IMG/VR virus record: IMGVR_UViG_3300027874_000007
Span: 1 to 40,383 of that record
Reading direction: 5' to 3' (one strand)
Source of the DNA: a virus
Lineage: Duplodnaviria; Caudoviricetes
DNA length: 40,383 bases
The position numbers were made by a program, and so were the translations under genes. The notes under the pieces were generated by a model that made no database searches, had not been told where the DNA came from, and saw only the letters and a list, made by a program, of their open reading frames with translations. Positions 1,556 to 25,331 of the stretch are shown piece after piece (the stretch's first letter is position 1; the number at the start of each line of letters is the position of its first letter).

Positions 1556-1565
1556 CCTCTATGCC
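1556..1565 (-). promoter_or_regulatory. GGCATAGAGG motif, copy 1
   Basis: Exact 10-mer, 6 nt before the ATG at 1549. Confidence 0.5.
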
Positions 1566-11245: not shown

Positions 11246-12208
11246 TTACGGGTTCGCGAAGTTGTTGCCGGTGATCCGCAGCACGCGCGCCTCGCGCGGG
11301 TTCGCGGTGGGATGGTAGAGGCCAAACCCGAGCTGCCCGTACCATGCGCAGCCCAAGTTCCGCCCGTAATCGTCCGCGATCTTGAGCCGCAACTCCGGGG
11401 TCTGCGCCTCCGCGAACGCCACCGCCTCGTCTCCGAAGATGAACGCCTGACCGATGTTCGTCCCCGCAGAGGTGGTCACCTGGAGCACGGTATCGTGGTT
11501 GGTCTCGATGATCCGGATGTTCTCCACCATCCCGATCTCACCGCGCTGGAGCTTCTCCGGATTGCCCAGCACGTACCATTCCTTGAAGAGCGTATCGTTC
11601 CGGACCGACCGCGTGGTGGCCCAGTTGGCGATCCCGATGTAGGCGTCGCCCTCCCCGAAGTACGGCATCTTGAGCGTGCCATACGCGTAGTCCCGGGCGA
11701 TCTGGAGATGGTTGATCCCGATGGCCGATGTTGCGGCGACCGACGGCGTGCCGGTCGTGTCGATCGTGAAGCCCGATGCCGAGCTGGGCGTCATGGTGAT
11801 CAGGCCCTTCTTGAACCCATCGCCGGCGGAGACATCCAACGTGAGCTTCATGATCTCGCGGAGCCGCTTCTTGACGAACGCGGGGAGATCGTACTTCGCG
11901 AAGTCGTCCCAGATGTTGGTCCACGTGACGGCTTCGCCAAATTCGAGGATCAAGAACGAGGTGCCGGAGATCCCGACGGCGGTTTCTGGAATCCGGATGT
12001 TCTCCTGGAGGATGCCCTTCGTCGGAGATTCCGGCGGGCCGGTCATCGTGAAGAGGTTGACGGTGTCGCCCTTCTTCTTCCCAAAGCCGTCGACCGGCTC
12101 GACCCACTGGATCACTTCGGCTTTCTCAAAGGCGGCCTCGTACATTTGTTCAGAAAGGAAGTTATTCCTGAACGGGCCCGTCGGCGTATCTTGGCTCCAG
12201 GTTTGCAT
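11246..12208 (-). CDS. Major capsid protein (HK97 fold, N4-gp56-like)
   Basis: GKKKGDTVNL, EFGEAVTWT, GEIGMVENIRIIETN, FIFGDEAV, DDYGRNLGCAWY; follows the scaffold gene. Confidence 0.88.
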   Translation of the reverse strand: MQTWSQDTPTGPFRNNFLSEQMYEAAFEKAEVIQWVEPVDGFGKKKGDTVNLFTMTGPPESPTKGILQENIRIPETAVGISGTSFLILEFGEAVTWTNIWDDFAKYDLPAFVKKRLREIMKLTLDVSAGDGFKKGLITMTPSSASGFTIDTTGTPSVAATSAIGINHLQIARDYAYGTLKMPYFGEGDAYIGIANWATTRSVRNDTLFKEWYVLGNPEKLQRGEIGMVENIRIIETNHDTVLQVTTSAGTNIGQAFIFGDEAVAFAEAQTPELRLKIADDYGRNLGCAWYGQLGFGLYHPTANPREARVLRITGNNFANP

Positions 12209-12220
12209 ATCCGCGCTCTC

Positions 12221-12730
12221 CTATTCTCCTCGATGCCGCCGCCACGTCCGCATGCGGTGGCAATTCGCACAGACCAAGTCGCACTTGGCGATCTCCGCCA
12301 AGGTCTTTTCGAGCGAGCGCCGGACGAGCTCGCTGCCGCCAAACTGAAAGAGCTTCTCCGTACCAGGCCGGTGATCGAAATCCATTGCGCAGGGCGGGAA
12401 GTGACCACCACAATCCACGCACGGTGCCGCTTTGAGGCGGGCGATCAGTTCGTCACACCGCTGACGGCGCAATAATTTGCCGCGTGCAAGGATCTTCGGT
12501 TTGTTCTTCTCGTACGAGCGACGAACAACTGCGCGCTGTCGTGCCGGATTGGCGCGGCGTGTGGCTAGGCCTCGTTTAGCCGTGCACGTACGACAGTAGA
12601 ATTGCAATCCATCAGGCATCCGGCGGTGTTTGCCGAATGCGGCATGGGGTTTCACGACCCGACAATCCGGACATCGCTTGTGGTGCTCCGGAAGAACAGG
12701 AGGTGCTTCAAGTGTGAGCAGATCACCCAT
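12221..12730 (-). CDS. HNH homing endonuclease (free-standing)
   Basis: KRCPDC...YCRTC N-terminal Zn motif; CVDC...DFDH...EIAKCDLVCANCHRMRT. Visibly lower GC than its neighbours. Confidence 0.92.
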   Translation of the reverse strand: MGDLLTLEAPPVLPEHHKRCPDCRVVKPHAAFGKHRRMPDGLQFYCRTCTAKRGLATRRANPARQRAVVRRSYEKNKPKILARGKLLRRQRCDELIARLKAAPCVDCGGHFPPCAMDFDHRPGTEKLFQFGGSELVRRSLEKTLAEIAKCDLVCANCHRMRTWRRHRGE

Positions 12731-13772: not shown

Positions 13773-14215
13773 CAGCCGACCTCGACCAGCTGCTGGGCGT
13801 GCTTGTCCACGGAGACGTCCACTTGGATGGCACCGCCGAGCTGGAGCAGATCGATCTCGCGAGCGAGCCGGACCATCTGCTTGCACGCGCCCTCGAGGAG
13901 TTCAGTGAGCGGGCGGAAGCGCTCCGGAATGTCGGGACGCAAGACGAGTTGCCCGGCGAGTCGGGCCCAGCGTATCGCCTGATCCTCAAGGCGCTCCGTG
14001 TCGCCAGTCATCGTGCCCTGGATGTCCCAGGTCGGATTGCCGCGGAGCCGCCGTGCCGCCGACACGATCGTGTGGTGGAGTCCGATCGTCGTATCGCGGG
14101 CCAGCTGCATCCAACCGTGATCGGCGGGGAGCTTGCCCACGTTGTACGCCAGCCAGACCAGCCACTGACGAGCTTTCGGCAGAGACGCGCCACGCACACG
14201 GATCCGGTCACTCAC
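13772..14215 (-). CDS. Hypothetical protein
   Basis: Probable GTG start at 14215 overlapping the upstream gene end; start uncertain. Confidence 0.6.
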   Translation of the reverse strand: MSDRIRVRGASLPKARQWLVWLAYNVGKLPADHGWMQLARDTTIGLHHTIVSAARRLRGNPTWDIQGTMTGDTERLEDQAIRWARLAGQLVLRPDIPERFRPLTELLEGACKQMVRLAREIDLLQLGGAIQVDVSVDKHAQQLVEVG

Positions 14216-14399
14216 CACCCCCGCCACCTCCATCCTTCGCCTTGCCCAAGGGATACGCCTTCGGAACGCCGCGCCACCGGTCCTTGACGGCTTCGGCCAT
14301 CGTTCCCGGCCCCGACCACTTCTGATCGCGATCGCGATTCGGAGCGTTCGCGTCTTCGGGCCGCGTGCTCTCGAAGCCTTTGGTCCAGTCGGCAGCCAT
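14208..14399 (-). CDS. Hypothetical protein (63 aa)
   Basis: MAADWTKGFESTRPED..., TGATG-coupled. Confidence 0.6.
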   Translation of the reverse strand: MAADWTKGFESTRPEDANAPNRDRDQKWSGPGTMAEAVKDRWRGVPKAYPLGKAKDGGGGGGE

Positions 14400-14659
14400 C
14401 AGCGCACCGCCTTTTTCTGTTTCTCCTCGATCAGCGAGGAGATGGTCTTCCGTCCTTCGGGCCGCACCGACACGCCATGCACCTCGAGCGAGAGATCGGC
14501 GTGGCCGTCGCGGAGCCGGAGCTCGTCCACGGCGCCGTCCAGTGTGACGCGGACGGTTTTCCCCGGCTCCAACGCGCTCCGGAGGCGTTCGGGTTTGGGA
14601 TCGGCCAAGCAGATCTGCGCTGAGCTGCCGGAGTCGGATGCCCCGCCGATCACCATCAT
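14399..14659 (-). CDS. Small head-module protein with scaffold-like C-terminal motif
   Basis: MMVIGG...LEPGKTVRVTLDGAVDEL...RKTISSLIEEKQ; ATGA-coupled to the upstream gene. Confidence 0.65.
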   Translation of the reverse strand: MMVIGGASDSGSSAQICLADPKPERLRSALEPGKTVRVTLDGAVDELRLRDGHADLSLEVHGVSVRPEGRKTISSLIEEKQKKAVR

Positions 14660-15648
14660 ACGCCGCCCCCGCCACCACCCTGCGCGAAGTCGCCGCCCGT
14701 CCACGGATTGCCCGCGCCGAAACTGCGGCCCATGTAACTCCCGGCACCCATGGCACCGGCGCCGCCCATGCCATATTGGCCCACGCCGCTGCGCTGCTGA
14801 TAGCCGCCGCCCATCCCGCCGCCCCCGCCCTGCATGCCGAGGCCACCGCCGTAGCGCGCTTGGAGGACCTGCTGCATCTCCGGCGAGTAGCCGCCGAACA
14901 TGCCGCCGCCACCGGGCCCAAAGGTTCCGCCGGGGCCGTAATAGCCCCCGACTGCGGTCCCGAGGCCGCCGCCACCCGCGCCGCCATAGCCCATGCCGCC
15001 CCACGTATTCTGGTACATCGGCGGCGCGCCCATCGGCTGCCAGCCACCACCGCCGCCACCGGGTTGCCCGAGGCCTGGGAGTTGCCCGGCGGCTTGCGCT
15101 TGCGGGTAGCCCCGGAGCTGGTCTTGGAGCCCGGCATTATCGCCGCTCCAGCCAGCCATGCCGCCACCCGGAATCTGCGGCGTGGTACCGGGCGTGACGG
15201 ACTCGTTCCACGGCGCGGGTCCCGCGGGAGGCTGCGGCGTGAAGGCACCCGGCGTCTGGTTCGGTGGCGTGCGGACGGGACGCTGGTTCTGCCCCGTCGC
15301 GAGGAAATCTTGGACCCGGGTCGCCTGCGGTGAGGTAGGCCCAAGCTGGTTCACCCGTTGCTGCAGCCACGGACGCGCGGCAAGGAACTGCTGTCCCTGC
15401 CCACCCTGCGCCGCCTGCTGGAACGCCCCGCGCTGGCGCGGTCCCAAGCCGAGCCCCAAGCCGAGCGGCGGCGCCGTCGGCGGCCGTGGTGTCGGAGCCG
15501 CTCCTGCGCCGGGTCTCTTCGCCTGCCCCGGCGGTGCCGATGGGACGCGACCGGGCCGCCCGCCGGTTGCCTGCCCCAAGGTGGGTTGGGCGCGCGGCGG
15601 GGCCGGACGGGCGGCTGGTCTTGGCGGGGGCTGACCCTTTCTTGGCAT
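14656..15648 (-). CDS. Low-complexity Pro/Arg then Gly/Gln/Tyr/Met-rich protein (330 aa)
   Basis: Starts after the GGCATAGAGG motif and its stop is coupled to the next ATG; coherent composition. Confidence 0.7.
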   Translation of the reverse strand: MPRKGQPPPRPAARPAPPRAQPTLGQATGGRPGRVPSAPPGQAKRPGAGAAPTPRPPTAPPLGLGLGLGPRQRGAFQQAAQGGQGQQFLAARPWLQQRVNQLGPTSPQATRVQDFLATGQNQRPVRTPPNQTPGAFTPQPPAGPAPWNESVTPGTTPQIPGGGMAGWSGDNAGLQDQLRGYPQAQAAGQLPGLGQPGGGGGGWQPMGAPPMYQNTWGGMGYGGAGGGGLGTAVGGYYGPGGTFGPGGGGMFGGYSPEMQQVLQARYGGGLGMQGGGGGMGGGYQQRSGVGQYGMGGAGAMGAGSYMGRSFGAGNPWTGGDFAQGGGGGGV

Positions 15649-15660
15649 CGGTCGCTTACC

Positions 15661-15670
15661 CCTCTATGCC
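15661..15670 (-). promoter_or_regulatory. GGCATAGAGG motif, copy 2
   Basis: Exact 10-mer, intergenic, 12 nt before the ATG at 15648. Confidence 0.5.
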
Positions 15671-15681
15671 CTCACGCGATG

Positions 15682-15933
15682 TCAGACCGGCGTCTGCCAT
15701 TCGCAGTCGAAATCCGCATCGGATTTCTTGACGAGGATCTGGCCCGTCACTCCACCCGCTGGCACGCCGGGCCCCGTTGGTCCGGCGGGTCCGGCTGGGC
15801 CAGTCGCACCGTCCGCGCCGTCCGCGCCTGGCGGTCCCGGTGGCCCTGGCACCCCTGGCGGCGGTGGGTACTCCACCTCGATCGGGGAATCATGTGGCCA
15901 CGACGGCACGCGGGGCGTTACCTCTCCAGCCAT
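15682..15933 (-). CDS. Collagen-like small protein (possible head fibre)
   Basis: (Gly-X-Y)n run followed by GVPAGGVTGQILVKKSDADFDCEW; GAGGTG RBS. Confidence 0.8.
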   Translation of the reverse strand: MAGEVTPRVPSWPHDSPIEVEYPPPPGVPGPPGPPGADGADGATGPAGPAGPTGPGVPAGGVTGQILVKKSDADFDCEWQTPV

Positions 15934-15942
15934 GGTCTCACC

Positions 15943-17985
15943 TCACGGCATTTGCTGGCCGCGCTGGCCTGTTGGATTCGGAGGAGGCCCGGCGGCGGCG
16001 GCCGCAGGATTCGCGGCGGGATTCTGCGGTGCCCCAGGTCCGCCACCGGGCGGCATTCCAGCCTGCGCCTGCAGCATGGCCGGATCAGGCATCGGCTCGT
16101 CGGGATCGCGTTCGACATCGCTGGGATCGATCCCAAGCGATTGCAAGATGATGGCGTACTCCTTGAGCGGCGAGAAGCGCGTCGTGATCACTTGGAGCAA
16201 CGCGGGATTTGATGCAGCCTGTTGTCGGAGCATCATCAGCTTCTGGAGATCCTTCACGCGTTGCAGCTGGTACTTGTAGCCCTGCACCTTGAAACTGGGC
16301 GCCGACGCGAAACACGCAAAGCGCTCCTGCGGCGAGAGCATCGCCAAGCTCTGCGCATTCTCCGGCCCAACGATGCCGCCCATCCGCGCAATCATCGAGT
16401 CGTCGGCAAACTGCCAGATCGTCAGCCAGCAGAGCTCGAGCAACGGCTCAATCGCGGTGTCCTCGAACCTGAGCGCAATGTTCGAGAACAGATCGTTGCC
16501 GGCATCCTCGACCTGCATGATCTCCGTCGCGGATTGCTTCCGCTGCGGCAGCCGGCCGAGCTGCAAATCGTTGATGCGAAAGGCCTCTTGGCGCATCCGG
16601 CTGATCCGGTCCAAGACGTTCAGCATGTCCTGGTTGAGCGTCCCGGTATCGACCCGCTTGACCACATCGGCGTCCCCGCGGCCTTCCGCGATCTCGAGAT
16701 CGATCCCCGGGCGCAGCCCGCCCTGAATTACACTGGGGTCCTCCAGCATGTAGGAGCGGATCTCCTTCACGCCCAGTGCCGCGTTGAACCCGGCATCGAT
16801 CATCAGGTTCGTCAGCTCCGACTCGGCTTCGACCAGCGGCCGAGCGATGTCGATGAACGCATGGTGCTGCTCCGCCGTCGGCGTCGGCAGCAACGGCACG
16901 GAGATGAACGGCCGCTTGCCTGCCCAGAGGATGTCTCGGATCCGCACCGGTCTCCGGACGACCGACGTCCCCCCAGCCGTCAGGAACATGATGCCCCGGC
17001 AAATCATCTGGCCGGTCTGCGGGTGGATCAGATCCCCCCAGTATTCGCGCAGCAGAGCCCGGTGCTGGGGCTGGCGGAGCGCAGGGGCTATCCCCTCCCT
17101 GCGGCGCTGCTGCTCAAGCTTCTCGCCGCCCGGAGACGCGTGACGCATCTTCTCGATCTCAGTCTGCGAAAAGCCCAGCTCCGGCAGATCGGAGATCGCG
17201 ATCTCCACCTCGTGGATGTCGTAGTGATGCGCCGCAGACGGATCCGGGTAGTGGTCCTCGAATGGCACGATGTCGATCCGCAGCCGCATCGTCGCCTTCG
17301 TCTCGAGCTTGAGCGACCCGCCCGGGCCAATCGAGAAGATCTGCTGGTCATCGGGCGCCATGGTCACTTTCCAGGTCACCACCGATTCGATCAGCCCGAT
17401 CTTCAGCGAATCGTAGACGAGCCGCCCGATGCCGTAGGTGGTCGGGATCTTCCCGCCCTCGACCGCCAGCCGCTCGATCTCTTGGCCCAGGATCTTGCAC
17501 GCCTGATCGGCATCCAGGCCCGGCAGCGGGGGCTCCACGCCCTCGTACTTGGCCGAGAACCAATGCGAAAACCCGACCAGCTGCTGTGTCAGCTGCGCGC
17601 AGACCTGCTCCATCGACGTCTCGAGCGACGGGATCACGATGGCCGACTGGCCCGCCCGCTTCTTCACCAGAAACTCGAACTTGCCGTGGAACGCGTCCCA
17701 GTTCCGGCGGTTCAGCTTCCGGCGCGTCTCCCGTGTCGACTTCGATTGCTCGTAGGCGATCTGCATCGCTTGGAGCAGGATCGCATCGTCCACCTGCGGC
17801 AGCGGGTCGGGATCCTCGATCGGCGGTGCCTCTGCGCCGAGATCAGGTGGCGGCGGGGGCGGGCCACCCATCGGCATCCCGGGCGGCGGCATGCCCGGCT
17901 GCGGCGGCTGCGGCAGCGGCGGCGGATTCGGGATCCCGGCCAGCGGGGCCCCCGGATCGAGCGGAATGCCCGGCCCGCCGTTCAC
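15943..17985 (-). CDS. Portal protein
   Basis: 680 aa directly after the large terminase; PFISVPLLP, KQSATEI motifs of podovirus-type portals. Confidence 0.85.
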   Translation of the reverse strand: MNGGPGIPLDPGAPLAGIPNPPPLPQPPQPGMPPPGMPMGGPPPPPPDLGAEAPPIEDPDPLPQVDDAILLQAMQIAYEQSKSTRETRRKLNRRNWDAFHGKFEFLVKKRAGQSAIVIPSLETSMEQVCAQLTQQLVGFSHWFSAKYEGVEPPLPGLDADQACKILGQEIERLAVEGGKIPTTYGIGRLVYDSLKIGLIESVVTWKVTMAPDDQQIFSIGPGGSLKLETKATMRLRIDIVPFEDHYPDPSAAHHYDIHEVEIAISDLPELGFSQTEIEKMRHASPGGEKLEQQRRREGIAPALRQPQHRALLREYWGDLIHPQTGQMICRGIMFLTAGGTSVVRRPVRIRDILWAGKRPFISVPLLPTPTAEQHHAFIDIARPLVEAESELTNLMIDAGFNAALGVKEIRSYMLEDPSVIQGGLRPGIDLEIAEGRGDADVVKRVDTGTLNQDMLNVLDRISRMRQEAFRINDLQLGRLPQRKQSATEIMQVEDAGNDLFSNIALRFEDTAIEPLLELCWLTIWQFADDSMIARMGGIVGPENAQSLAMLSPQERFACFASAPSFKVQGYKYQLQRVKDLQKLMMLRQQAASNPALLQVITTRFSPLKEYAIILQSLGIDPSDVERDPDEPMPDPAMLQAQAGMPPGGGPGAPQNPAANPAAAAAGPPPNPTGQRGQQMP

Positions 17986-19463
17986 AGGAGATCCCGCTGC
18001 TCGCGCTGGAAGCCGTACGCCGGCGGCGGAATGGGCGCCCGCTTCGGCTGCCCGATCCGGGTCGCCTGCGTCAACGATGCCGCCTCACGCAAGAACAGGA
18101 TGTAGCCCATCGCGTCCGAGATGTGGGTGCGCTGATAGTACGGGTCGTCCCGCTTGTGGCTCTTGTTGATGTGCCCGCCGTCACGGCTCCAGAGCACCTG
18201 CTCCAAGTCGGCAATGAGCTCGACGCACCCCGGCGCCACCTCGAGGCGCACGGGGGCCCCCGCCGCCCCCAAGAGGAAGTTCACCAAGTTGACCCGGTTC
18301 CGGTCGGGCGGATTCTGCGGCGGCACGGCAAGTCGCACCCGCGGCCCGCCTGCCATCGCCGCCAACAGCACCTCGTAATCCGTTTTTCCCGTCTGCGCGT
18401 GGCGATGTTCGGCCATGGCGTCACCGCACAAGACGATCTCGTGCCGATGAGTCGAGAAACGTTCGCGGATGGTGTCGCCCAGCTCGCCCAGCGTCCCGGG
18501 CCGGAGCACGATCTCATCCAGCGCCCGCCAGATTTTGCCGTGCTGCTGCATGATGATCGCGCAGAGCGGATCGACGTTCACATCCACGCCCACATAGAGC
18601 GGACGCATCGGGTCGATCGACGGCGGCCCCAAGGTCTTGTTGACGTGCAGTCGGCGCTCGAACCCGCTGTAACAGCGTGCCCCGATCAATCCCGGCAGGA
18701 GCTCGCCCAAGATGCGGATCCGGTAGTCAAGCGACCCCGGTGCGTAGAGCCGCCGTGCGAGGCCGAGCTGCTCCTCCGTGATGTACGGATTGTCCGCCAT
18801 CGAGACGTTGATGATCCGCGTGTCGTCGCCCAGCCGCTTGTGCAGCCACGGCTCGATCTTCTCGGACCAGAGCCACTGACAGACGCCCCCCGACTGCCCC
18901 GGCGGCGGCAGCAAGGTCGCCGCCATCCGCACCAAGACGCGGCTCCCCGCCCCGAACCGAATCGCGCACTCGTTGTAGATCGGCCACGTCGGCGGCTCGT
19001 CGTAGTCCACCTCGTCGATCGCCGCCCCAGCGAATTTATCGCGTCCTTGCTCGCAGCTCTTGAGCACGCACCGCCAGCCCTCGTGCCCGATCACCTCCCA
19101 GTCCGGCGACGTCCGCACCTGCGCGATCTCGGTCTCCGGAATGAACGGCACGATGCCCGGGGCGCCCTCGTAGAGCTGCGGGACGATGTTCTGGCGGCTC
19201 ATCGCGTTCGACGGCGAGACGATCCAGATCAGTTTCGCCGCGCCGCTCCGCAGCCGCCGCGCCACCCGCGCACAGAGCGCAATCGTCTTCCCCGATCGGT
19301 TGGCGCCGAGCAACAGCACTTCGCGCGTATCGTCGTCCTCGACGAACTGCTGCTGCTTCGGATGCGCCTTCGGGAAGCTGCGAAAGTGGCGGAGCGCATC
19401 GGTGGCGACCCGCCGCTCCCATTCGTCGACCACCTCGGCGGCATAGGCGAGCGCGTCCTCCAC
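17982..19463 (-). CDS. terL: Terminase large subunit
   Basis: Walker A GANRSGKT, Walker B VDYDEPP, DNPYI, RNase-H-like GVDVNVDP and HISDAMGY. GTG start overlaps the upstream TAG. Confidence 0.93.
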   Translation of the reverse strand: MEDALAYAAEVVDEWERRVATDALRHFRSFPKAHPKQQQFVEDDDTREVLLLGANRSGKTIALCARVARRLRSGAAKLIWIVSPSNAMSRQNIVPQLYEGAPGIVPFIPETEIAQVRTSPDWEVIGHEGWRCVLKSCEQGRDKFAGAAIDEVDYDEPPTWPIYNECAIRFGAGSRVLVRMAATLLPPPGQSGGVCQWLWSEKIEPWLHKRLGDDTRIINVSMADNPYITEEQLGLARRLYAPGSLDYRIRILGELLPGLIGARCYSGFERRLHVNKTLGPPSIDPMRPLYVGVDVNVDPLCAIIMQQHGKIWRALDEIVLRPGTLGELGDTIRERFSTHRHEIVLCGDAMAEHRHAQTGKTDYEVLLAAMAGGPRVRLAVPPQNPPDRNRVNLVNFLLGAAGAPVRLEVAPGCVELIADLEQVLWSRDGGHINKSHKRDDPYYQRTHISDAMGYILFLREAASLTQATRIGQPKRAPIPPPAYGFQREQRDLL

Positions 19464-19669
19464 TAGGTCAGGTACCTTCGCGGCGGCATCAGCCAGCTGA
19501 TCCGCTGCGGGATCAGGCCGACCAGCGACAAGAGCCACAAGATCACCGCGATCACGATGACCACCCGGATCACCTGCTTGATCGCGGGATCGATCGGCAG
19601 CAGCGTCTCGACGAGGTAGAGGATCAGCCCGATCACGATCAAGATGACGATCAACTGGATCAAGGGCAC
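19463..19669 (-). CDS. Two-TM membrane protein (Thivi_2564-like family)
   Basis: MPLIQLIVILIVIGLILYLVETLLPIDPAIKQVIRVVIVIAVILWLL; AAGGAGG RBS. Confidence 0.85.
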   Translation of the reverse strand: MPLIQLIVILIVIGLILYLVETLLPIDPAIKQVIRVVIVIAVILWLLSLVGLIPQRISWLMPPRRYLT

Positions 19670-20193
19670 GGTGCACCTCCTTCACCCTTGCCGTTCGACT
19701 CGACGGGAATCGCCGGCGGGGCACAGACGGGACAGACGCCTTGCTCCTCCTTCAAGCGTCGCGCCATCGCCAAGACCACGCCCACCAGCTGCTTCTCCGT
19801 CATCGCCCCCGGCGCTTGTCGGGTGGGCTTCGGCCCCTCGAGCAAGACCGCCAGCCGCACTTGGCCTTCACTCGCCCGCAAGACGCCCGTCGCCGCCTGA
19901 CTGACGCGCTGGGCGACGCTGGCGCACTCCCGCAATAGGAACAGCGCTTCCTTGCCGTCGAAGTCGCCCACGTCGACGCGCTGGCGCACCAGCCCCGTCA
20001 GCTTCCGCACGATCGGCTCGAGCGCCGTCCACGCCCCGACCATCCCCTCGCCGGCATCCAAGGTCTTCCGCGCGAGATCGACCACGCGCTCGCCGGAGAG
20101 CCGCGTCAGCCCGTGGGTCGCCGTCAAGTCGGTCGCGACATGCTGCGGGACGAGACCGGCAGCGGCGCCGCGTTTGCGCGTCCGCCCCGCCAT
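19660..20193 (-). CDS. Putative terminase small subunit
   Basis: 177-aa helical protein with a basic N-terminus upstream of terL; assigned by position only. Confidence 0.45.
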   Translation of the reverse strand: MAGRTRKRGAAAGLVPQHVATDLTATHGLTRLSGERVVDLARKTLDAGEGMVGAWTALEPIVRKLTGLVRQRVDVGDFDGKEALFLLRECASVAQRVSQAATGVLRASEGQVRLAVLLEGPKPTRQAPGAMTEKQLVGVVLAMARRLKEEQGVCPVCAPPAIPVESNGKGEGGAPCP

Positions 20194-20202
20194 CGCGCCC
20201 GC

Positions 20203-20394
20203 TCAGTACGTGTCGCTGGGCGTCGCCTCGCCGCCCCCACCACCCGGCTTGCCCGGCGTGGCCCCCTTCGCGGTCTCCTTCGACCACCCCGGGCCGGGAC
20301 TCGGCCGACTCTCGTTCGTCTTCTCGGTCCCCGGCGCCGCGCCTGGCACCTGCCCGGCTGGGGCGATCACTTCGTAGCCATCGGTGAACGGCAT
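20203..20394 (-). CDS. Small Gly/Pro-rich protein (63 aa)
   Basis: MPFTDGYEV...SDTY after a GAGGAGG RBS. Confidence 0.65.
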   Translation of the reverse strand: MPFTDGYEVIAPAGQVPGAAPGTEKTNESRPSPGPGWSKETAKGATPGKPGGGGGEATPSDTY

Positions 20395-20408
20395 GGAGAG
20401 CAGCCTCC

Positions 20409-20549
20409 TCAGTATTGGATCACTTGCGTCTTCGGGGGCGCATCGGGATCGACGGGCTCTTCCTTCGTCGGCGGCGGGACCTCCTCGTCCTCCTCCGGGG
20501 GCGGCTCGTGCTCCGGATGCTCCGCGCGATGCGATGGGTGCTTTGCCAT
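20409..20549 (-). CDS. Small acidic Glu/Pro-rich peptide (46 aa), first gene of the late operon
   Basis: Not in the ORF track. MAKHPSHRAEHPEHEPPPEEDEEVPPPTKEEPVDPDAPPKTQVIQY with an AGAGGAGG RBS. Confidence 0.65.
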   Translation of the reverse strand: MAKHPSHRAEHPEHEPPPEEDEEVPPPTKEEPVDPDAPPKTQVIQY

Positions 20550-20555
20550 GCCCCT

Positions 20556-20565
20556 CCTCTATGCC
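20556..20565 (-). promoter_or_regulatory. GGCATAGAGG motif, copy 3, at the head of the late operon
   Basis: Exact 10-mer, 6 nt before the ATG at 20549. Confidence 0.55.
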
Positions 20566-20613
20566 CCCCGCGCGTTGACACCGGCTGCATCGCGGCGTTA
20601 CATCGGCCAGCAC

Positions 20614-20829
20614 ATGAGCACCCCAGCCGATCGCCACCCCTTCGACCCCGTCTCCGAGGCCATCGGGGAGCTCCGCGCCGAGATGCGCGCCGTCCGCAGT
20701 ACCCTTGAGCACGTGGATACCCGCGTCGGCCGCCTCGAAGATCGCATGTGGTGGGTGATCGGCATCGTCGTCACCGGGCTGCTGGCCCAAGTCGGCACCT
20801 TGGTCGCCGTCCTCGTGCGCGCGCACTAA
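20614..20829 (+). CDS. Coiled-coil plus C-terminal TM protein (XhlA-like architecture)
   Basis: IGELRAEMRAVRSTLEHVDTRVGRLEDRMWWVIGIVVTGLLAQ; a perfect TTGACA at 20575-20580 upstream. Confidence 0.75.
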   Translation: MSTPADRHPFDPVSEAIGELRAEMRAVRSTLEHVDTRVGRLEDRMWWVIGIVVTGLLAQVGTLVAVLVRAH

Positions 20830-20983
20830 CGACCTCCCGCGACCTCCCGCCAGCCCCTGCGCCGTCCCGCCACCCTGGCGCGCGCGCACTAACCGAGCGT
20901 GCATCGGACTGCACACGTTGCAAGTCTGGCACCTCGCATGCTACGTGCCTCCCGTTCGTCGTCGTCGTACGGAGGTCGGTCGC

Positions 20984-21463
20984 ATGGGTCGGGTGGCACG
21001 GGATGCTACGCGTTTGGACGCCGCGTTCCCCGTGCCGCCCTATCTTCCCCCCCCCGCCCGCACCATCCTCCCGTGGGCGCGCCGCTACGTCGCCACCACC
21101 GCCCGCCGCTCGAGCCTCTCCCTTGATGACGCGTGGGATGAAGCCATCACGGCGCTGCTCCGCGCTGCGGTCTACTTTCAGCCCGGCGCTGGCACGTTCC
21201 ATGCCTACGCCCGCACCGCCGTCATCCGCGGCCTCTGGCGCTACTGCCGCCGTCCCAGCCGCCTCCCCATCGAGGGACTTCCCGCGCACGCACTAACAGC
21301 CCCCAGCGCCGAGACCGTCGTGGCGCTCGCCGACCTGGCCGCGGCTTATGCTGCGGATGAAGTCGGGGCAGCGATGGCGATCCAGTCGCCGCGCTCAACA
21401 TCCAGCCTGAGCCCTAGCTTCTTGGCGATGCCATGCATGCCGCGCGTAGCGACAAAGGACTGA
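20984..21463 (+). CDS. Sigma-70 region-2-only protein
   Basis: GGAGGT RBS. SLDDAWDEAITALLRAAVYFQPGAGTFHAYARTAVIRGLWRYCRR follows the sigma region 2.2-2.4 pattern; no region-4 HTH in the ORF. Confidence 0.7.
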   Translation: MGRVARDATRLDAAFPVPPYLPPPARTILPWARRYVATTARRSSLSLDDAWDEAITALLRAAVYFQPGAGTFHAYARTAVIRGLWRYCRRPSRLPIEGLPAHALTAPSAETVVALADLAAAYAADEVGAAMAIQSPRSTSSLSPSFLAMPCMPRVATKD

Positions 21464-21663
21464 GCGAATGCCTGCTCGGCCGTCTTCCCCGCATGCAACG
21501 CCGTCGCGCAATCGTCCGCCGCGCGGAGATAGTGACCGATCCGGTAGATGTTCGGCTGGTAGCGCCGCCGCACTTCGTGCGCCGTCTCCTGCGCATCCAA
21601 GCGTACCAGCAAGGCTCCTAATCGGGCACGGAAGACCGCAATCTCGTCTGTAGTCATGGTCAT
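21346..21663 (-). CDS. Hypothetical protein
   Basis: MTMTTDEIAVF... plausible globular sequence; last gene of a small minus-strand cassette. Confidence 0.6.
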   Translation of the reverse strand: MTMTTDEIAVFRARLGALLVRLDAQETAHEVRRRYQPNIYRIGHYLRAADDCATALHAGKTAEQAFAQSFVATRGMHGIAKKLGLRLDVERGDWIAIAAPTSSAA

Positions 21664-21739
21664 CGACTCGCTTTCTGGAGCCACAGCCGCTCCGCCAGTG
21701 GCACGCGCCGCGGGCATGCCACCAGACGCATCGGCCGCG

Positions 21740-21817
21740 TCACCGCTGGATCAGCCCGAACCGCTGCAGCACATGGACCACGTACATGCCCGCCACAAAG
21801 AGCGCGATCGCCATCAT
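21740..21817 (-). CDS. Hydrophobic micropeptide (25 aa)
   Basis: MMAIALFVAGMYVVHVLQRFGLIQR, ATGA-coupled to the upstream peptide. Confidence 0.45.
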   Translation of the reverse strand: MMAIALFVAGMYVVHVLQRFGLIQR

Positions 21818-21882
21818 GGGATCACCAGATACGCCGTCGCGCTCACCAGCATCGTCACGGCGCTCAGCACAATGATCGTCAT
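21814..21882 (-). CDS. Hydrophobic micropeptide (22 aa)
   Basis: MTIIVLSAVTMLVSATAYLVIP starts 4 nt after the upstream stop. Confidence 0.45.
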   Translation of the reverse strand: MTIIVLSAVTMLVSATAYLVIP

Positions 21883-21886
21883 GGCC

Positions 21887-22066
21887 CTACGCCTCGCACG
21901 CGGCCCGAAACCGCCCCTCGTCGAACCGCGGTCCGAACGCCCGAAACAACGCAACGTACGCCTCCTCGATCTGGTCGATCTTGGCTCCGATCGTCTCCGC
22001 GTACTGCCGATGGCGTCTGAGCTCCCGCACGTACCGCGCGGCATACTCAAAATGCTTCTTCGTCAT
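21887..22066 (-). CDS. Small conserved phage protein (MTKKHF...PRFD..RF..AC family)
   Basis: AGGAGG RBS; pattern recurrent in phage early genes. Confidence 0.8.
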   Translation of the reverse strand: MTKKHFEYAARYVRELRRHRQYAETIGAKIDQIEEAYVALFRAFGPRFDEGRFRAACEA

Positions 22067-22158
22067 GGTCAACCTCCTAGGTAATGTCATGTGGCCATGT
22101 GGCCACTCACTCACATGGACGTGATTACCTAAGAAGGTGTGTCACCGCAAGAGCGCAC

Positions 22159-22593
22159 ATGCCTGGCAAGCGTAACCTCGCCCGCGAACGCGCCCAGCAC
22201 GCCGCCACCGAACACGAGCGGAGCGCCGCTCTATACACGATGCTCTGTCAGGCGCTCCCAGACCGCGAACAAGCGATCATCGGCCACGCCCGCATCCTGC
22301 ACCACCTCGCCTCCCTCCACGTTACCCGTCGCAACGGCCGCCCACTCTCCTGGCGCATCGTCACGCGCTGGCGTCGCCTCCACGCCTTCCCGCTCCTCTC
22401 CGGCGCCTATCGCCCTCACCACCTCGCCCCGCCGTTCTCCACCACGCACGCCATCACCGCCTGGCTCCTCACTCGCCTCTCCTCTGACGAGCACGAACTC
22501 TTCCGTGTCGGTCAACCCTCACGCGTGGAACCGCAAGGGAACGCGCCCCGAGATTCGCGTAGCGCAGAGCGCACCCTGGCCGACGCCGCATAG
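22159..22593 (+). CDS. Putative winged-HTH DNA-binding protein
   Basis: IIGHARILHHL...SWRIVTRWRRLHAFPL...STTHAITAWL resembles Xis/MerR-type wHTH. Confidence 0.55.
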   Translation: MPGKRNLARERAQHAATEHERSAALYTMLCQALPDREQAIIGHARILHHLASLHVTRRNGRPLSWRIVTRWRRLHAFPLLSGAYRPHHLAPPFSTTHAITAWLLTRLSSDEHELFRVGQPSRVEPQGNAPRDSRSAERTLADAA

Positions 22594-22879
22594 CGCAACC
22601 TGACTGGGCCTCGAGAGCGCCGGCGTTGCATCCCGCGTTGCACCCGGAGCTCGCTTGAGCGTAACCCTGCGGAGTGCAAGCGACTGCAGGCGGCGAGCAT
22701 CAGGGGGCCAGCCTGACGCCAGGGGTTTTCCACTACCCCCTCCGCTCGAGTGCCTCAGAATCGGGCAGGCGGGAAGGCAGAGCTCAAGCCAGCTGCCATG
22801 CGAGCTGCGACGACCCCGGGCTTGCCGACCGCTTCGACGACTCGCTCGCCGGCCCGGGGCCGAAGCATCCCCTCCTGTA

Positions 22880-23190
22880 CGGAGCTGCCAGAATGGCAAC
22901 TTTTCGAGGCACCAGAAGTGGCCGGAGGGGGGGTGCCACGGGGTACACCAAACATTCTGCTGGCGCTGTGCCCCCCCTCTTCCCCTAGTGTTCTATACCC
23001 CTTGGTACCCCTGGTACCCTGGTGGGGGGGTAATAAAAGAGCAACGGATACCGTGGTTTGAGGAGTGCCAGGGAGGTGCCACGGGTGCCAGCGGAAAGTC
23101 TTCAGAAGGGGCTGGTAGGGCTGGCACCCCTGGCACAGGGGGAGGGGGAGAAGGAGAGGTGCCATGGGGGGTGCTGGCACCCCTTGTAGA
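22880..23190. other. Putative replication origin with GTGCCA/TGGCAC iterons
   Basis: Non-coding gap next to the primase-helicase gene. Repeated GTGCCA/TGGCAC in both orientations, tandem TGGTACCC copies, an AT patch (taataaaaga), and the GC-skew switch point. Confidence 0.7.
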
Positions 23191-23192
23191 GG

Positions 23193-25331
23193 TCAGGGGG
23201 CGAACCAGCGGCGGGGGCGGGAGTGGCCGCGGCGGGAGAAGCCGGCGCGTTTGAGGATATCGGTGACGCGGTGGGTGTCGGTGCCTTTCCAGCGGTCTGG
23301 GGGGAGATGGAGGCAGGCGTCGAGGATCTCGGTGGAGGAGACGTGGGGGAGGGGGGCGATGTAGTCGAGGACGAGGGGTTCCCAGGGGTCGGCGTCGTAG
23401 CGATCGTCTTGGGCGGCGGCGAGGAGAGGGGCGTGAGCGGGGGAGGGCCACCAGGGGGTTCCGGCGCGGAATTCGGAGACGGCTTCGGCCCAGAGCTGGT
23501 CGCGGTCGCGGGTGGCGGCGGGGGGATCGAGGGTGGTGGTGGTGATGGGCCAGAAGCGCCGGGCGCCGGTCGGATCGTGGAGGTAGGCGTCGTCGTTGGT
23601 GGTGCCGATGAAGAGGCACTGGCGGGGGCGGCGACGGAAGGTGCGGGCGTAGGGGGGGCGATAGACGTCGACGGGGCGGGAGAGGAAGTCTTTAATGCGG
23701 GAGGAGGCGATGGCGCGGAAGGCGTCGAGTTCGCCGACTTCGACGAGCCAGTGGCCTTGGAGTTGGTGGGCGGCCTGGTCGGAGGAGAGGTTTGGGAGGT
23801 GGGGGAGGAAGTAGGGGCCGGCGAGGGCGCGGATGAGGGAGGATTTGCCGGCGCCTTGGGGGCCTTCGAGGATGAGCATGTGATCGGCTTGGCAGCCTGG
23901 GGCGAGGATGCGGGCAACGGCGGCGATCAGCGTCCAGGTGCCGACGAGGGACGTGGTGTGGGAGTCTGGGGCACCGGCGTAAGTCTGGAGCCAAGTGGGG
24001 AGGCGGGGCTGCCCGTCCCAGACGAGGGCGTGGAGATAGTCGCGCAGGGGGTGGATGGGGGTGGCGTCGGCGGCGGTCGTGGTGGCGGTGTGTGCGGTAT
24101 CGGGGCCGATGGTCCAGCCGCGGGTGCGGGTGCACCAGTGGGCGACGTAGGTGAGGTGGGCATCGGAGAGGTCGGTGCCGACGGTGGGGGTGGGGTAGCC
24201 GGAGAGGGGAGGAGGCGGGCGGCGCCAGAGGATGCGGTCAGCGAAGGTGTCGTGGGCGAGGGTGCCGGCCCACAGCGGGTCGTTCATCAAGAGGTCGGCG
24301 ACATCGCCGGCGGAGGCGCGGGTGCGTTTGCCGATGGGGTGGAGGCGGGGGCCCGGTGGAGGCGGCGCATCGGCGTCGGTGGGAGGGGGGACGTCCTCGC
24401 GGAGCCCGAGGCTCTGGCGAGCGCGGGTGACGGCGTCGGGGGGAAGGGCGGTGAGGACGGCGGCGGTGGTCAAGTCGGTGCAGTGGGAATGGGAGCAGTG
24501 GAACCAGCCGGGGCCGCCGGGGCGTTGGGGGGCGTAGACGACGGAGGAGCCGTTGAAGCGGGACCCGGTCGAGTGGTCGTCTTCGCGGGGGCAGCGGGCG
24601 GCGGACTTGTCGGGGCCGAGCGGGGGTCCGAGCCAGCCGGCTTCCTCGAGGGCGCGACCGAGGAGCCCATCGCGGACGGCGGCGGCGGTGGGGGTCGCGG
24701 CGTGGACGGGGCGGGTATCGAGGAGCTCCACGAGCCAGGCGGGCGCGTCCGCGACGGGGAGGTCCTCGAGGGAGTAGCCGAGTTCGAAGGTGTAGGGGCG
24801 TCCGGAGCGGTGACCGGAGGGGGCGGCGATGATGTAGCCGCCGTCGGCTTTGAGATCGATGCCGCGGCCGAGGCCGTGGCGGGGGCCGCGGACGTGGGGG
24901 CGATTGGGGCGGGCGAGGAGGAGATGGAGGCCGCCGCCGCCCGTCAACTGGCGGGGCGTATCGGGGAAGGGCCCGTAGCGGGCCTCCAAGTCGGACAAGG
25001 AGGCGTCGCCGCCGTTGCGGGGATCGACATCGACGACGAGGAGGCCGGAGGGGCCGCAGGCGATGGCGAGGTGGGCGCGGGGCCACTCGGACCACCAGCG
25101 GGTGACGGTGGCGGGATCGGTGGTGGCGTCCTTGACGCCGTTCGGGGTGCGGGGGTGTTTGCCGGGGGAGCCGCAGTGGCCGGCGGCGTCGCGGGAGGGG
25201 TGGGTGCGGGGGCACGCGCAGTCGCTTGAGTCCGGGGTGACTTCCCAGCAGGGGAAGACGGCGCACTGGTGGGAGAGGTAGCCGAGGGCGGCGGTGAGGA
25301 GGGGTGAGGGCTCGTGTGCTGGGCCCATCAT
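23193..25331 (-). CDS. Bifunctional primase-polymerase fused to VapE-like helicase
   Basis: AVFPC...GKHP..NGVKDAT, VVDVDPRNGG, TGGGGLH, DLKADGGYIIAAPS; then LEGPQGAGKS, VGELD, FIGTTND..YLHDPTGARRFWPI. Confidence 0.93.
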   Translation of the reverse strand: MMGPAHEPSPLLTAALGYLSHQCAVFPCWEVTPDSSDCACPRTHPSRDAAGHCGSPGKHPRTPNGVKDATTDPATVTRWWSEWPRAHLAIACGPSGLLVVDVDPRNGGDASLSDLEARYGPFPDTPRQLTGGGGLHLLLARPNRPHVRGPRHGLGRGIDLKADGGYIIAAPSGHRSGRPYTFELGYSLEDLPVADAPAWLVELLDTRPVHAATPTAAAVRDGLLGRALEEAGWLGPPLGPDKSAARCPREDDHSTGSRFNGSSVVYAPQRPGGPGWFHCSHSHCTDLTTAAVLTALPPDAVTRARQSLGLREDVPPPTDADAPPPPGPRLHPIGKRTRASAGDVADLLMNDPLWAGTLAHDTFADRILWRRPPPPLSGYPTPTVGTDLSDAHLTYVAHWCTRTRGWTIGPDTAHTATTTAADATPIHPLRDYLHALVWDGQPRLPTWLQTYAGAPDSHTTSLVGTWTLIAAVARILAPGCQADHMLILEGPQGAGKSSLIRALAGPYFLPHLPNLSSDQAAHQLQGHWLVEVGELDAFRAIASSRIKDFLSRPVDVYRPPYARTFRRRPRQCLFIGTTNDDAYLHDPTGARRFWPITTTTLDPPAATRDRDQLWAEAVSEFRAGTPWWPSPAHAPLLAAAQDDRYDADPWEPLVLDYIAPLPHVSSTEILDACLHLPPDRWKGTDTHRVTDILKRAGFSRRGHSRPRRWFAP

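Follow-up and report, generated by a model that had tools for sequence, protein, structure and literature searches.

The window, the whole 40,383-nt stretch of DNA analysed here, is a complete circular phage genome (99-nt terminal repeat, completeness 100%, GC 67%). Pfam and PHROG searches identified a large terminase, portal, capsid, tail fibres, a transglycosylase-bearing virion protein, a primase-helicase and an integrase. On the minus strand, virion genes start at 20549 and continue past the genome end to about 35000, and a short sigma-type gene lies on the opposite strand. The original prediction placed this gene just outside the start of the divergent late operon; the location is correct, but a small plus-strand gene intervenes (Table 1). 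The phage contig sits in a binned genome record titled Candidatus Methylomirabilota and, since it matched just one of the 251 genomes of that phylum, the host is uncertain.

Table 1. Positions of the features discussed in the text (window coordinates unless a locus is named).
Feature	Position	Strand	Basis
Region-2-only sigma-70-family protein, 159 aa	20984..21463	+	Pfam, AlphaFold model, fold searches, profile comparison, family alignment
Candidate promoter for transcription of the sigma gene by host sigma: TTGCAA, 18 nt, TA preceded by TG at -15/-14 (TGCTA), T-7 missing	20918..20943	+	
Partner gene, 144 aa: long N-terminal helix and predicted Xis/MerR-type winged helix	22159..22593	+	Linkage, model, fold search
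GGCATAG site 1, which opens the packaging block of small genes, a putative small terminase, the large terminase and the portal	20559..20565	-	
GGCATAG site 2, after portal, head of head/tail block; ATG 15648 lies 15 nt downstream	15664..15670	-	
GGCATAG site 3, which opens the block that passes over the genome end as far as the lytic transglycosylase (internal virion) gene	1559..1565	-	
First late gene, 46 aa, acidic/proline-rich	20409..20549	-	ORF and motif spacing
Large terminase, late block 1	17982..19463	-	Pfam/PHROG
Portal, late block 1	15943..17985	-	Pfam/PHROG
Major capsid protein, late block 2	11246..12208	-	PHROG
Small coiled-coil/membrane gene between site 1 and the sigma gene	20614..20829	+	Pfam scan, locus comparison
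Variable small-gene cluster	window 21346-22066; L001 4900-6400; L024 1675-4010	- (window)	
Paralogues of gene 20203-20394, at the late-operon start	L003 3253-3657; L050 3098-3410; L070 850-1150		

The intervening coiled-coil/membrane gene was found at that position in the closest relatives only, its homologue in L074 sits after the portal gene in antisense orientation, and it is probably outside the sigma/motif system. A promoter-like site for this gene (20575-20603, plus strand; TTGACA, 18 nt, TA(CATC)) stands back to back with late site 1 and shares its 18-nt spacing and missing T at -7 with the candidate promoter of the sigma gene; the membrane gene is possibly a moron gene expressed in the lysogen. 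A scan of 14000-24000 for consensus sigma-70 promoters returned 0 sites. Several further elements were observed along the genome. The small gene at 20203-20394 encodes a D-G-Y-E...G-P-G-P-x-W motif, and in distant relatives the late operon begins with tandem paralogues of it. The late region also holds two HNH endonuclease genes (1756-2169 and 12221-12730, minus strand) that occur in some relatives only. Small minus-strand genes between the sigma and partner genes, different in every relative, mark an accessory-gene hot spot, and the low-coding stretch between the partner gene and the primase end (22600-23190), with G-runs and GGTGCCA/TGGCACC repeats, is a candidate replication origin.

The sigma-type protein and its family

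The sigma-type ORF has a GGAGG at 20971 and contains DDAWDEAITALLRAAVYFQPGAGTFHAYARTAVIRGLWRYCRR and TAPSAE, the latter confirming the APSAE linker described earlier. Sequence and model give the same layout: a sigma-2 domain (about residues 18-93), a linker, a conserved P-S-x-E and a C-terminal helix (109-133). Pfam Sigma70_r2 (PF04542) matched residues 29-92 at E 3.5e-5 with 23.9 bits, just below the cut-off of 24, and homologues scored up to 35.1 bits. Comparison of the family profile with full-length sigmas gave a probability of 99.1 (E 4.4e-19) over a match spanning region 2 through the linker. The AlphaFold model is helical, and its best structural match was region 2 of E. coli sigma70 (1sig_A; model residues 21-91 on sigma70 376-446, 70 residues, rmsd 1.9) at Z 9.8, a modest value that lies below the level the fold-comparison tool treats as decisive for helical bundles; the top rows were sigma-2 domains. 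Foldseek also placed sigmas in its top rows, yet no row reached E 0.001, and T4 gp55 scored Z 5.8 against the model, below canonical sigmas. The window protein had no Pfam match to region 4 and no such element in its AlphaFold model; it is not a complete sigma-70 factor of groups 1-4, the region-4 helix-turn-helix being missing from the chain. The original description of a sigma-70 region 2 without region 4 was thus upheld.

A profile search for the family recovered 144 proteins, of which 69 were scanned for region 4. It was absent from all 43 of the closest members, 18 of which matched region 2, and present in 14 of 26 distant weak matches; the close homologues are therefore short proteins without region 4, not the uniformly full-length sigmas that would have marked the window copy as a remnant. 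Stop codons of the gene were observed in 52 of 55 loci, and 19 pairings with the window copy gave dN/dS values of 0-0.47 over a core of 75 codons. By these comparisons the ORF belongs to a maintained region-2-only family under purifying selection, and the window gene is for that reason not a pseudogene or truncated sigma; a weak search for longer homologues of the protein found none. Neither the sigma protein (at E 0.1) nor the partner protein matched any of 50,697 phage records, and the family therefore appears uncharacterised; a literature search, with most subscription papers outside its reach, found nothing on it. Several copies of the sigma gene lie among non-phage genes, two of them broken (L054, apparently frameshifted, and L055). 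Neighbours in L032, L035, L036 and L054 include a PAS/GAF histidine kinase, an ECF sigma plus DUF4267, a glycosyltransferase and a TPR protein; the sensor kinase, ECF sigma and glycosyltransferase stand beside the gene in L032, L035 and L036, and the partner is also present in L032 and L035. Gene content suggests that these three settings are prophage ends or remnants.

Conservation was followed residue by residue in 125 proteins. The predicted core-binding acidic helix is conserved (D49 93%, D52 94%, E53 97%, R60 100%), as are the DNA-facing helix (Y75 95%, R82 95%, W85 85%, R86 91%, Y87 86%, R90 86%) and P107-S108-x-E110. An RpoS alignment together with the structural range equates Y75, R82, W85 and R86 with Y430, Q437, T440 and R441 of sigma70, in which Q437 and T440 are described as facing -12 and Q437, T440 and R441 as acting at or near -12 (PMC2613000, in the text available). 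The putative DNA-reading residues of region 2.3-2.4 are conserved nearly as well as the core-binding ones, which argues against the pure decoy offered originally as the alternative, a protein that merely sequesters core polymerase, since such a decoy would presumably need no DNA-facing residues. The melting tryptophan pair of primary sigmas (W433/W434) is replaced by T78/A79, a loss that would be equally expected of a decoy. Alternative sigmas also lack this pair, need near-consensus promoters and thread their linker through the active-site cleft, as described in the accessible part of bioRxiv 10.1101/534826; this fits a near-invariant motif.

The GGCATAG motif and putative promoter geometry

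The 10-mer GGCATAGAGG occurs exactly three times in the window (1556, 15661 and 20556), always on the minus (late) strand and 6, 12 and 6 nt before the ATGs at 1549, 15648 and 20549, respectively, just as first reported; the mean in shuffled sequences was 0.02, and none of 100 shuffles reached three copies. The exact 10-mer did not hold as the conserved element. The conserved core is the 7-mer GGCATAG, which closer relatives extend to GGCATAGAG, and the remainder overlaps a purine-rich Shine-Dalgarno-like stretch. The count of the bare 7-mer is unremarkable (5 copies in the window vs 2.6 expected, a number attained by 11 of 100 shuffles), so that it is significant for where it lies and how well it is conserved. 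Bare GGCATAG also falls in coding DNA, with two further copies in the window and six in G001, the only other complete relative. Such copies arise by chance, so the purines downstream of the word probably contribute to specificity.

At orthologous block heads, GGCATAG was present in 14/14 loci for site 1 (330-nt window), 9/9 for site 2 (80 nt; 11/11 with a wider window) and 4/4 for site 3 (60 nt), whereas 16 other late genes had it at 1 of 205 starts and six other genes at 0 of 83 (80 nt). Loci for this test were not chosen by motif, duplicates were removed, too-short loci were dropped and the window's own copy was counted. The expectation that the motif would accompany the gene in relatives was thus borne out. 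G001, whose sigma protein is 59% identical, carries GCATAGAG exactly three times, on the late strand and before the same genes, in a comparison of two complete genomes. A viral motif scan returned 26 stretches, 7 of which matched window genes and 19 of which did not; among close relatives, none lacking the sigma gene was found. Five distant phages (32-33% capsid identity) gave no sigma-gene match and no motif excess, a weak control in which the best genome was 83% complete. Some relatives carry extra motif copies before tail-fibre and other genes. A one-mismatch copy at 12228, before the capsid gene, was rejected as a site (0/17 capsid starts). An antisense GCATAGAG lies inside terL, over L-Y-A/P codons, in L001, L017, L021, L066, L068, L069, L072 and L073 and is missing from the window; 12 of 13 sequences use TAT for its Tyr, but TAT also prevails in two other Tyr columns (10/13), and codon context may explain the TAT codon.

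Geometry was compared at 38 hand-picked sites. The word lies 9-16 nt from the start codon at 37 of them. No column exceeded 0.35 bits up to position -1, apart from which a G bias was seen just before the word, and no conserved -35 or other upstream box was detected at these sites, in line with the earlier observation. At sites 1 and 3 the spacing is TA-N10-ATG (to 20549 and 1549 in the window) in 14 of 18 copies and N11 in the other four, and at site 2 the start follows 11-16 nt after the core, which would leave a short leader without a clear ribosome site. A T-12/A-11 register on TAG would put +1 at the ATG for sites 1 and 3, and translation of the first late gene from a leaderless mRNA is predicted. 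The sigmaE/sigmaK-like CATA register favoured earlier, C-12/A-11, would place +1 two bases earlier and is less well supported by the spacing. In the binned host genome G010, GTGCTA-N-ATG matches cluster at N=10, 11 and 13, many with a T at -7 when read by eye, hinting at leaderless host genes.

The sigma gene itself appears to have a promoter of a different kind. TG(C/T)TA was found near its start in 38 of 39 loci, three of which were scored on a copy inside the ORF, vs 73 of 599 background windows, and never with a T at -7. This element resembles a weak extended -10 promoter of host type and differs from the late word in the -16 to -13 positions; the TG at -15/-14 is described as read by sigma region 2.5/3 (bioRxiv 10.1101/534826, accessible part). 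The partner gene carries TG(C/G)TA-N10-start in L001, L017 and L018 and N11 in L020, and such a site lies near the start in 4 of 17 separately placed partner copies. Since this spacing matches the late TA-N10-start, it was counted for the T-12/A-11 register.

The predicted winged-helix partner and the candidate readers of the motif

The original prediction missed the linked gene downstream, whose product is a predicted winged-helix protein. A same-strand partner follows the sigma gene in 34 of 52 loci, and in 14 of the 17 whose downstream sequence extends 1.5 kb or more; it abuts (gap of 9 nt or less) or overlaps the sigma gene in 17 of 33 loci, many of them close kin. A Pfam scan of the partner gave no match, and the searches for its homologues were shallow. 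Its model best matched the GIsul2 excisionase at Z 5.5 (rmsd 2.4, 57 aligned), which is below the level the tool trusts, and many further rows were Xis, MerR, BldC or packaging-related. Identity as a detached region 4 was rejected, given a probability of 0.3 (E 0.18) for its profile against full sigmas and the Xis/MerR types in the fold search; a home-made profile found no region-4-like ORF at E<1 in either complete genome. Late regulators are usually located directly before the late operon, and the sigma/partner cassette occupies that place in L003 (VRR-NUC, methylase, sigma, partner, late genes) and L050. An inverted repeat (22070-22139, 16-nt arms, 81%) with ATGTGGCC repeats occupies the gap between the minus-strand gene 21887-22066 and the partner gene; a counterpart lies upstream of 1641 in L014, several relatives share a TCATGTAGACG-like word upstream of their partner gene, and the inverted-repeat region is a candidate operator.

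The explanation that we favour, with moderate confidence, is a gp55-like, -10-only late sigma, a mini-sigma that would redirect host polymerase to GGCATAG and so switch on the three virion-gene blocks. The sigma-2 protein likely docks on the host's RNA polymerase instead of host sigma and likely reads GGCATAG as a stand-alone -10 element. For this central claim of the original prediction, the fold, the family and the motif conservation all speak; against its straightforward acceptance, the partner, by its modelled fold a candidate co-activator or rival motif reader, co-occurs with the motif equally well, and co-occurrence thus cannot tell which protein reads it. Geometry and residue conservation favour the sigma over the partner.

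The strongest alternative, though an improbable one, is that specificity truly lies with the winged-helix protein, which would bind GGCATAG and activate polymerase carrying host sigma, the sigma-2 protein meanwhile displacing or sequestering host sigma in the manner of D29 gp53. The predicted Xis/MerR DNA-binding fold and the linkage of the two genes would suit such a role, the motif has TA at -12/-11 like host-type promoters, and a sigma-2/3 mimic that displaces SigA has been described (bioRxiv 10.64898/2026.10.05.756390, in the portion available). The motif, however, occupies the obligate -10 position, where a bound protein would be expected to block polymerase rather than recruit it, and it is one asymmetric 7-mer without a repeat or upstream site. 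It also lacks the TG and T-7 found by eye in many GTGCTA-N-ATG sites of the binned host genome, and the DNA-facing sigma residues are nearly invariant.

Placed below this, and likewise doubtful, is that host sigma reads the motif as a late promoter with the help of a different, unrecognised activator or antiterminator of the phage, the sigma-2 protein being a decoy or serving other promoters such as its own TGCTA promoter. Many phage ORFs lack an assigned function, and the TG(C/T)TA at the sigma gene, which has no T-7, is strongly conserved in its own right; on the other side, the cassette in L003 and L050 has the usual place of a late regulator. Moreover, a TG at -15/-14 is read by sigma region 2.5/3 according to the accessible text of bioRxiv 10.1101/534826, and this region is absent from the sigma-2 protein. 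Least probable of all, and very unlikely, is that GGCAUAG works at the RNA level, enhancing translation or serving as an operator in fusion with the Shine-Dalgarno of each block's first gene, and that the sigma-like protein has other targets: the word's distance of 9-16 nt to the start codon and the AGAGG/AGGGG-type purines after the word in closer relatives agree with it, but in the more distant L003, L051 and L070 the core is retained before GT, AA or GA without a Shine-Dalgarno, in L050 a gene that has its own Shine-Dalgarno starts 94 nt after it, the word is restricted to block heads, RNA structure at the three sites is unremarkable (z -0.86, 0.04 and 0.38), and a loose pattern gave only 23 matches in the 4.9-Mb binned host genome, three of them on the phage contig, so that the word is not a common start signal there.

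A candidate late system and its known counterparts

Under the favoured mini-sigma explanation, host sigma would transcribe the sigma gene after induction from its weak extended -10 promoter (TGCTA, no T-7). The acidic region-2.2 helix (D49, D52, E53) would then bind the beta-prime clamp helices, the linker ending in P-S-x-E would thread the active-site cleft in the fashion of ECF linkers, and the region-2.3/2.4 helix (Y75, R82, W85, R86, Y87, R90) would read G-16 G-15 C-14 A-13 T-12 A-11 G-10. At sites 1 and 3 transcription would start at or beside the ATG to give a leaderless mRNA, and the purine stretch would act as a ribosome site only on read-through RNA. The linked winged-helix protein would be the likeliest helper compensating for the missing region 4, and might instead have a separate job.

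The closest precedent is the T4 late system, in which the sigma similarity of gp55 is limited to domain 2 and helpers gp33 and gp45 (the sliding clamp) take part, as described in the available parts of PMC7892883 and PMC2988020. The two share, to the extent covered there, a resemblance to sigma in domain 2 alone and a -10-like box with nothing conserved at -35 (here in sequence only); transcription of late genes by host core polymerase and a separate helper protein would be further common points, both candidates here. By sequence the window protein does not belong to the gp55 family, falling in no PHROG family at E 0.01 and matching none of the 50,697 phage records; with a Z of only 5.8 to gp55, it is probably an independent truncation of a group 3/4-like sigma. 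The setting also differs, being a 40-kb integrase-bearing phage with three promoters only and a different promoter sequence. T4 gp55 has a C-terminal clamp-binding motif, whereas C-termini in the window family are not conserved, and the portion of the ORFs scanned contained no gp33/gp45-type families. Whereas T4 gp33 does not read sequence, as far as the sources at hand describe it, the helper candidate in the window is a predicted winged helix.

Among podophages, phiEco32 gp36 acts with gp79 as a middle/late sigma with the -10-region consensus AATGTA; its acidic helix binds the clamp helices and its region-2.4 residues read -14 to -12 (PMC12276001, available text). The window system would resemble it in being a podophage sigma with a short -10-region word, an acidic clamp-binding helix, DNA-reading region-2.4 residues and a second phage protein as helper. 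By the same account, gp36 keeps an essential sigma-4-like C-terminal domain contacting the -35 region, and the window protein has none. Two-subunit sigmas are described in the accessible part of bioRxiv 10.64898/2026.10.01.756105 (SigO-RsoA of B. subtilis, Sig7-Sig8 of Tn916 and SPO1 gp33/gp34), and another split sigma has been proposed for Francisella MtvS1/2 (bioRxiv 10.1101/2024.09.12.612765, in part). The former group shares with the window cassette two linked genes on a mobile element, one with region 2. The SigO-RsoA and Sig7-8 pairs, as described there, supply regions 2 and 4 and read both -10 and -35; in contrast, the window partner is not region-4-like and no -35 is conserved. Mycobacteriophage D29 gp53, a structural mimic (PF25684) shown to displace SigA, for which the portion of bioRxiv 10.64898/2026.10.05.756390 available names no promoter, forms with gp52 a similarly conserved two-gene phage module with a minimal sigma-like protein without domain 4. 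Unlike D29 gp53 as described there, the window protein has sequence-level region-2 homology and a candidate promoter.

A bolder form of the favoured explanation, tentative and on balance rather unlikely, would be a new split sigma in which the sigma-2 half reads a -10-only box and starts leaderless late mRNAs, an excisionase/MerR-type winged helix replaces both region 4 and the T4 gp33/sliding-clamp helpers, and both genes travel together as one cassette, from phage to phage and into chromosomes of bacteria. Most known region-2-only sigmas come from T4-type phages and need the sliding clamp there for full activity. The mini-sigma explanation gives base-level predictions of start sites and points to residues for specificity swaps; if true, it would define a sigma minimum and offer a compact, testable orthogonal promoter system. 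A core of about 100 residues with a 7-9-base promoter in a small integrase-bearing phage would then mean that the design arose more than once.
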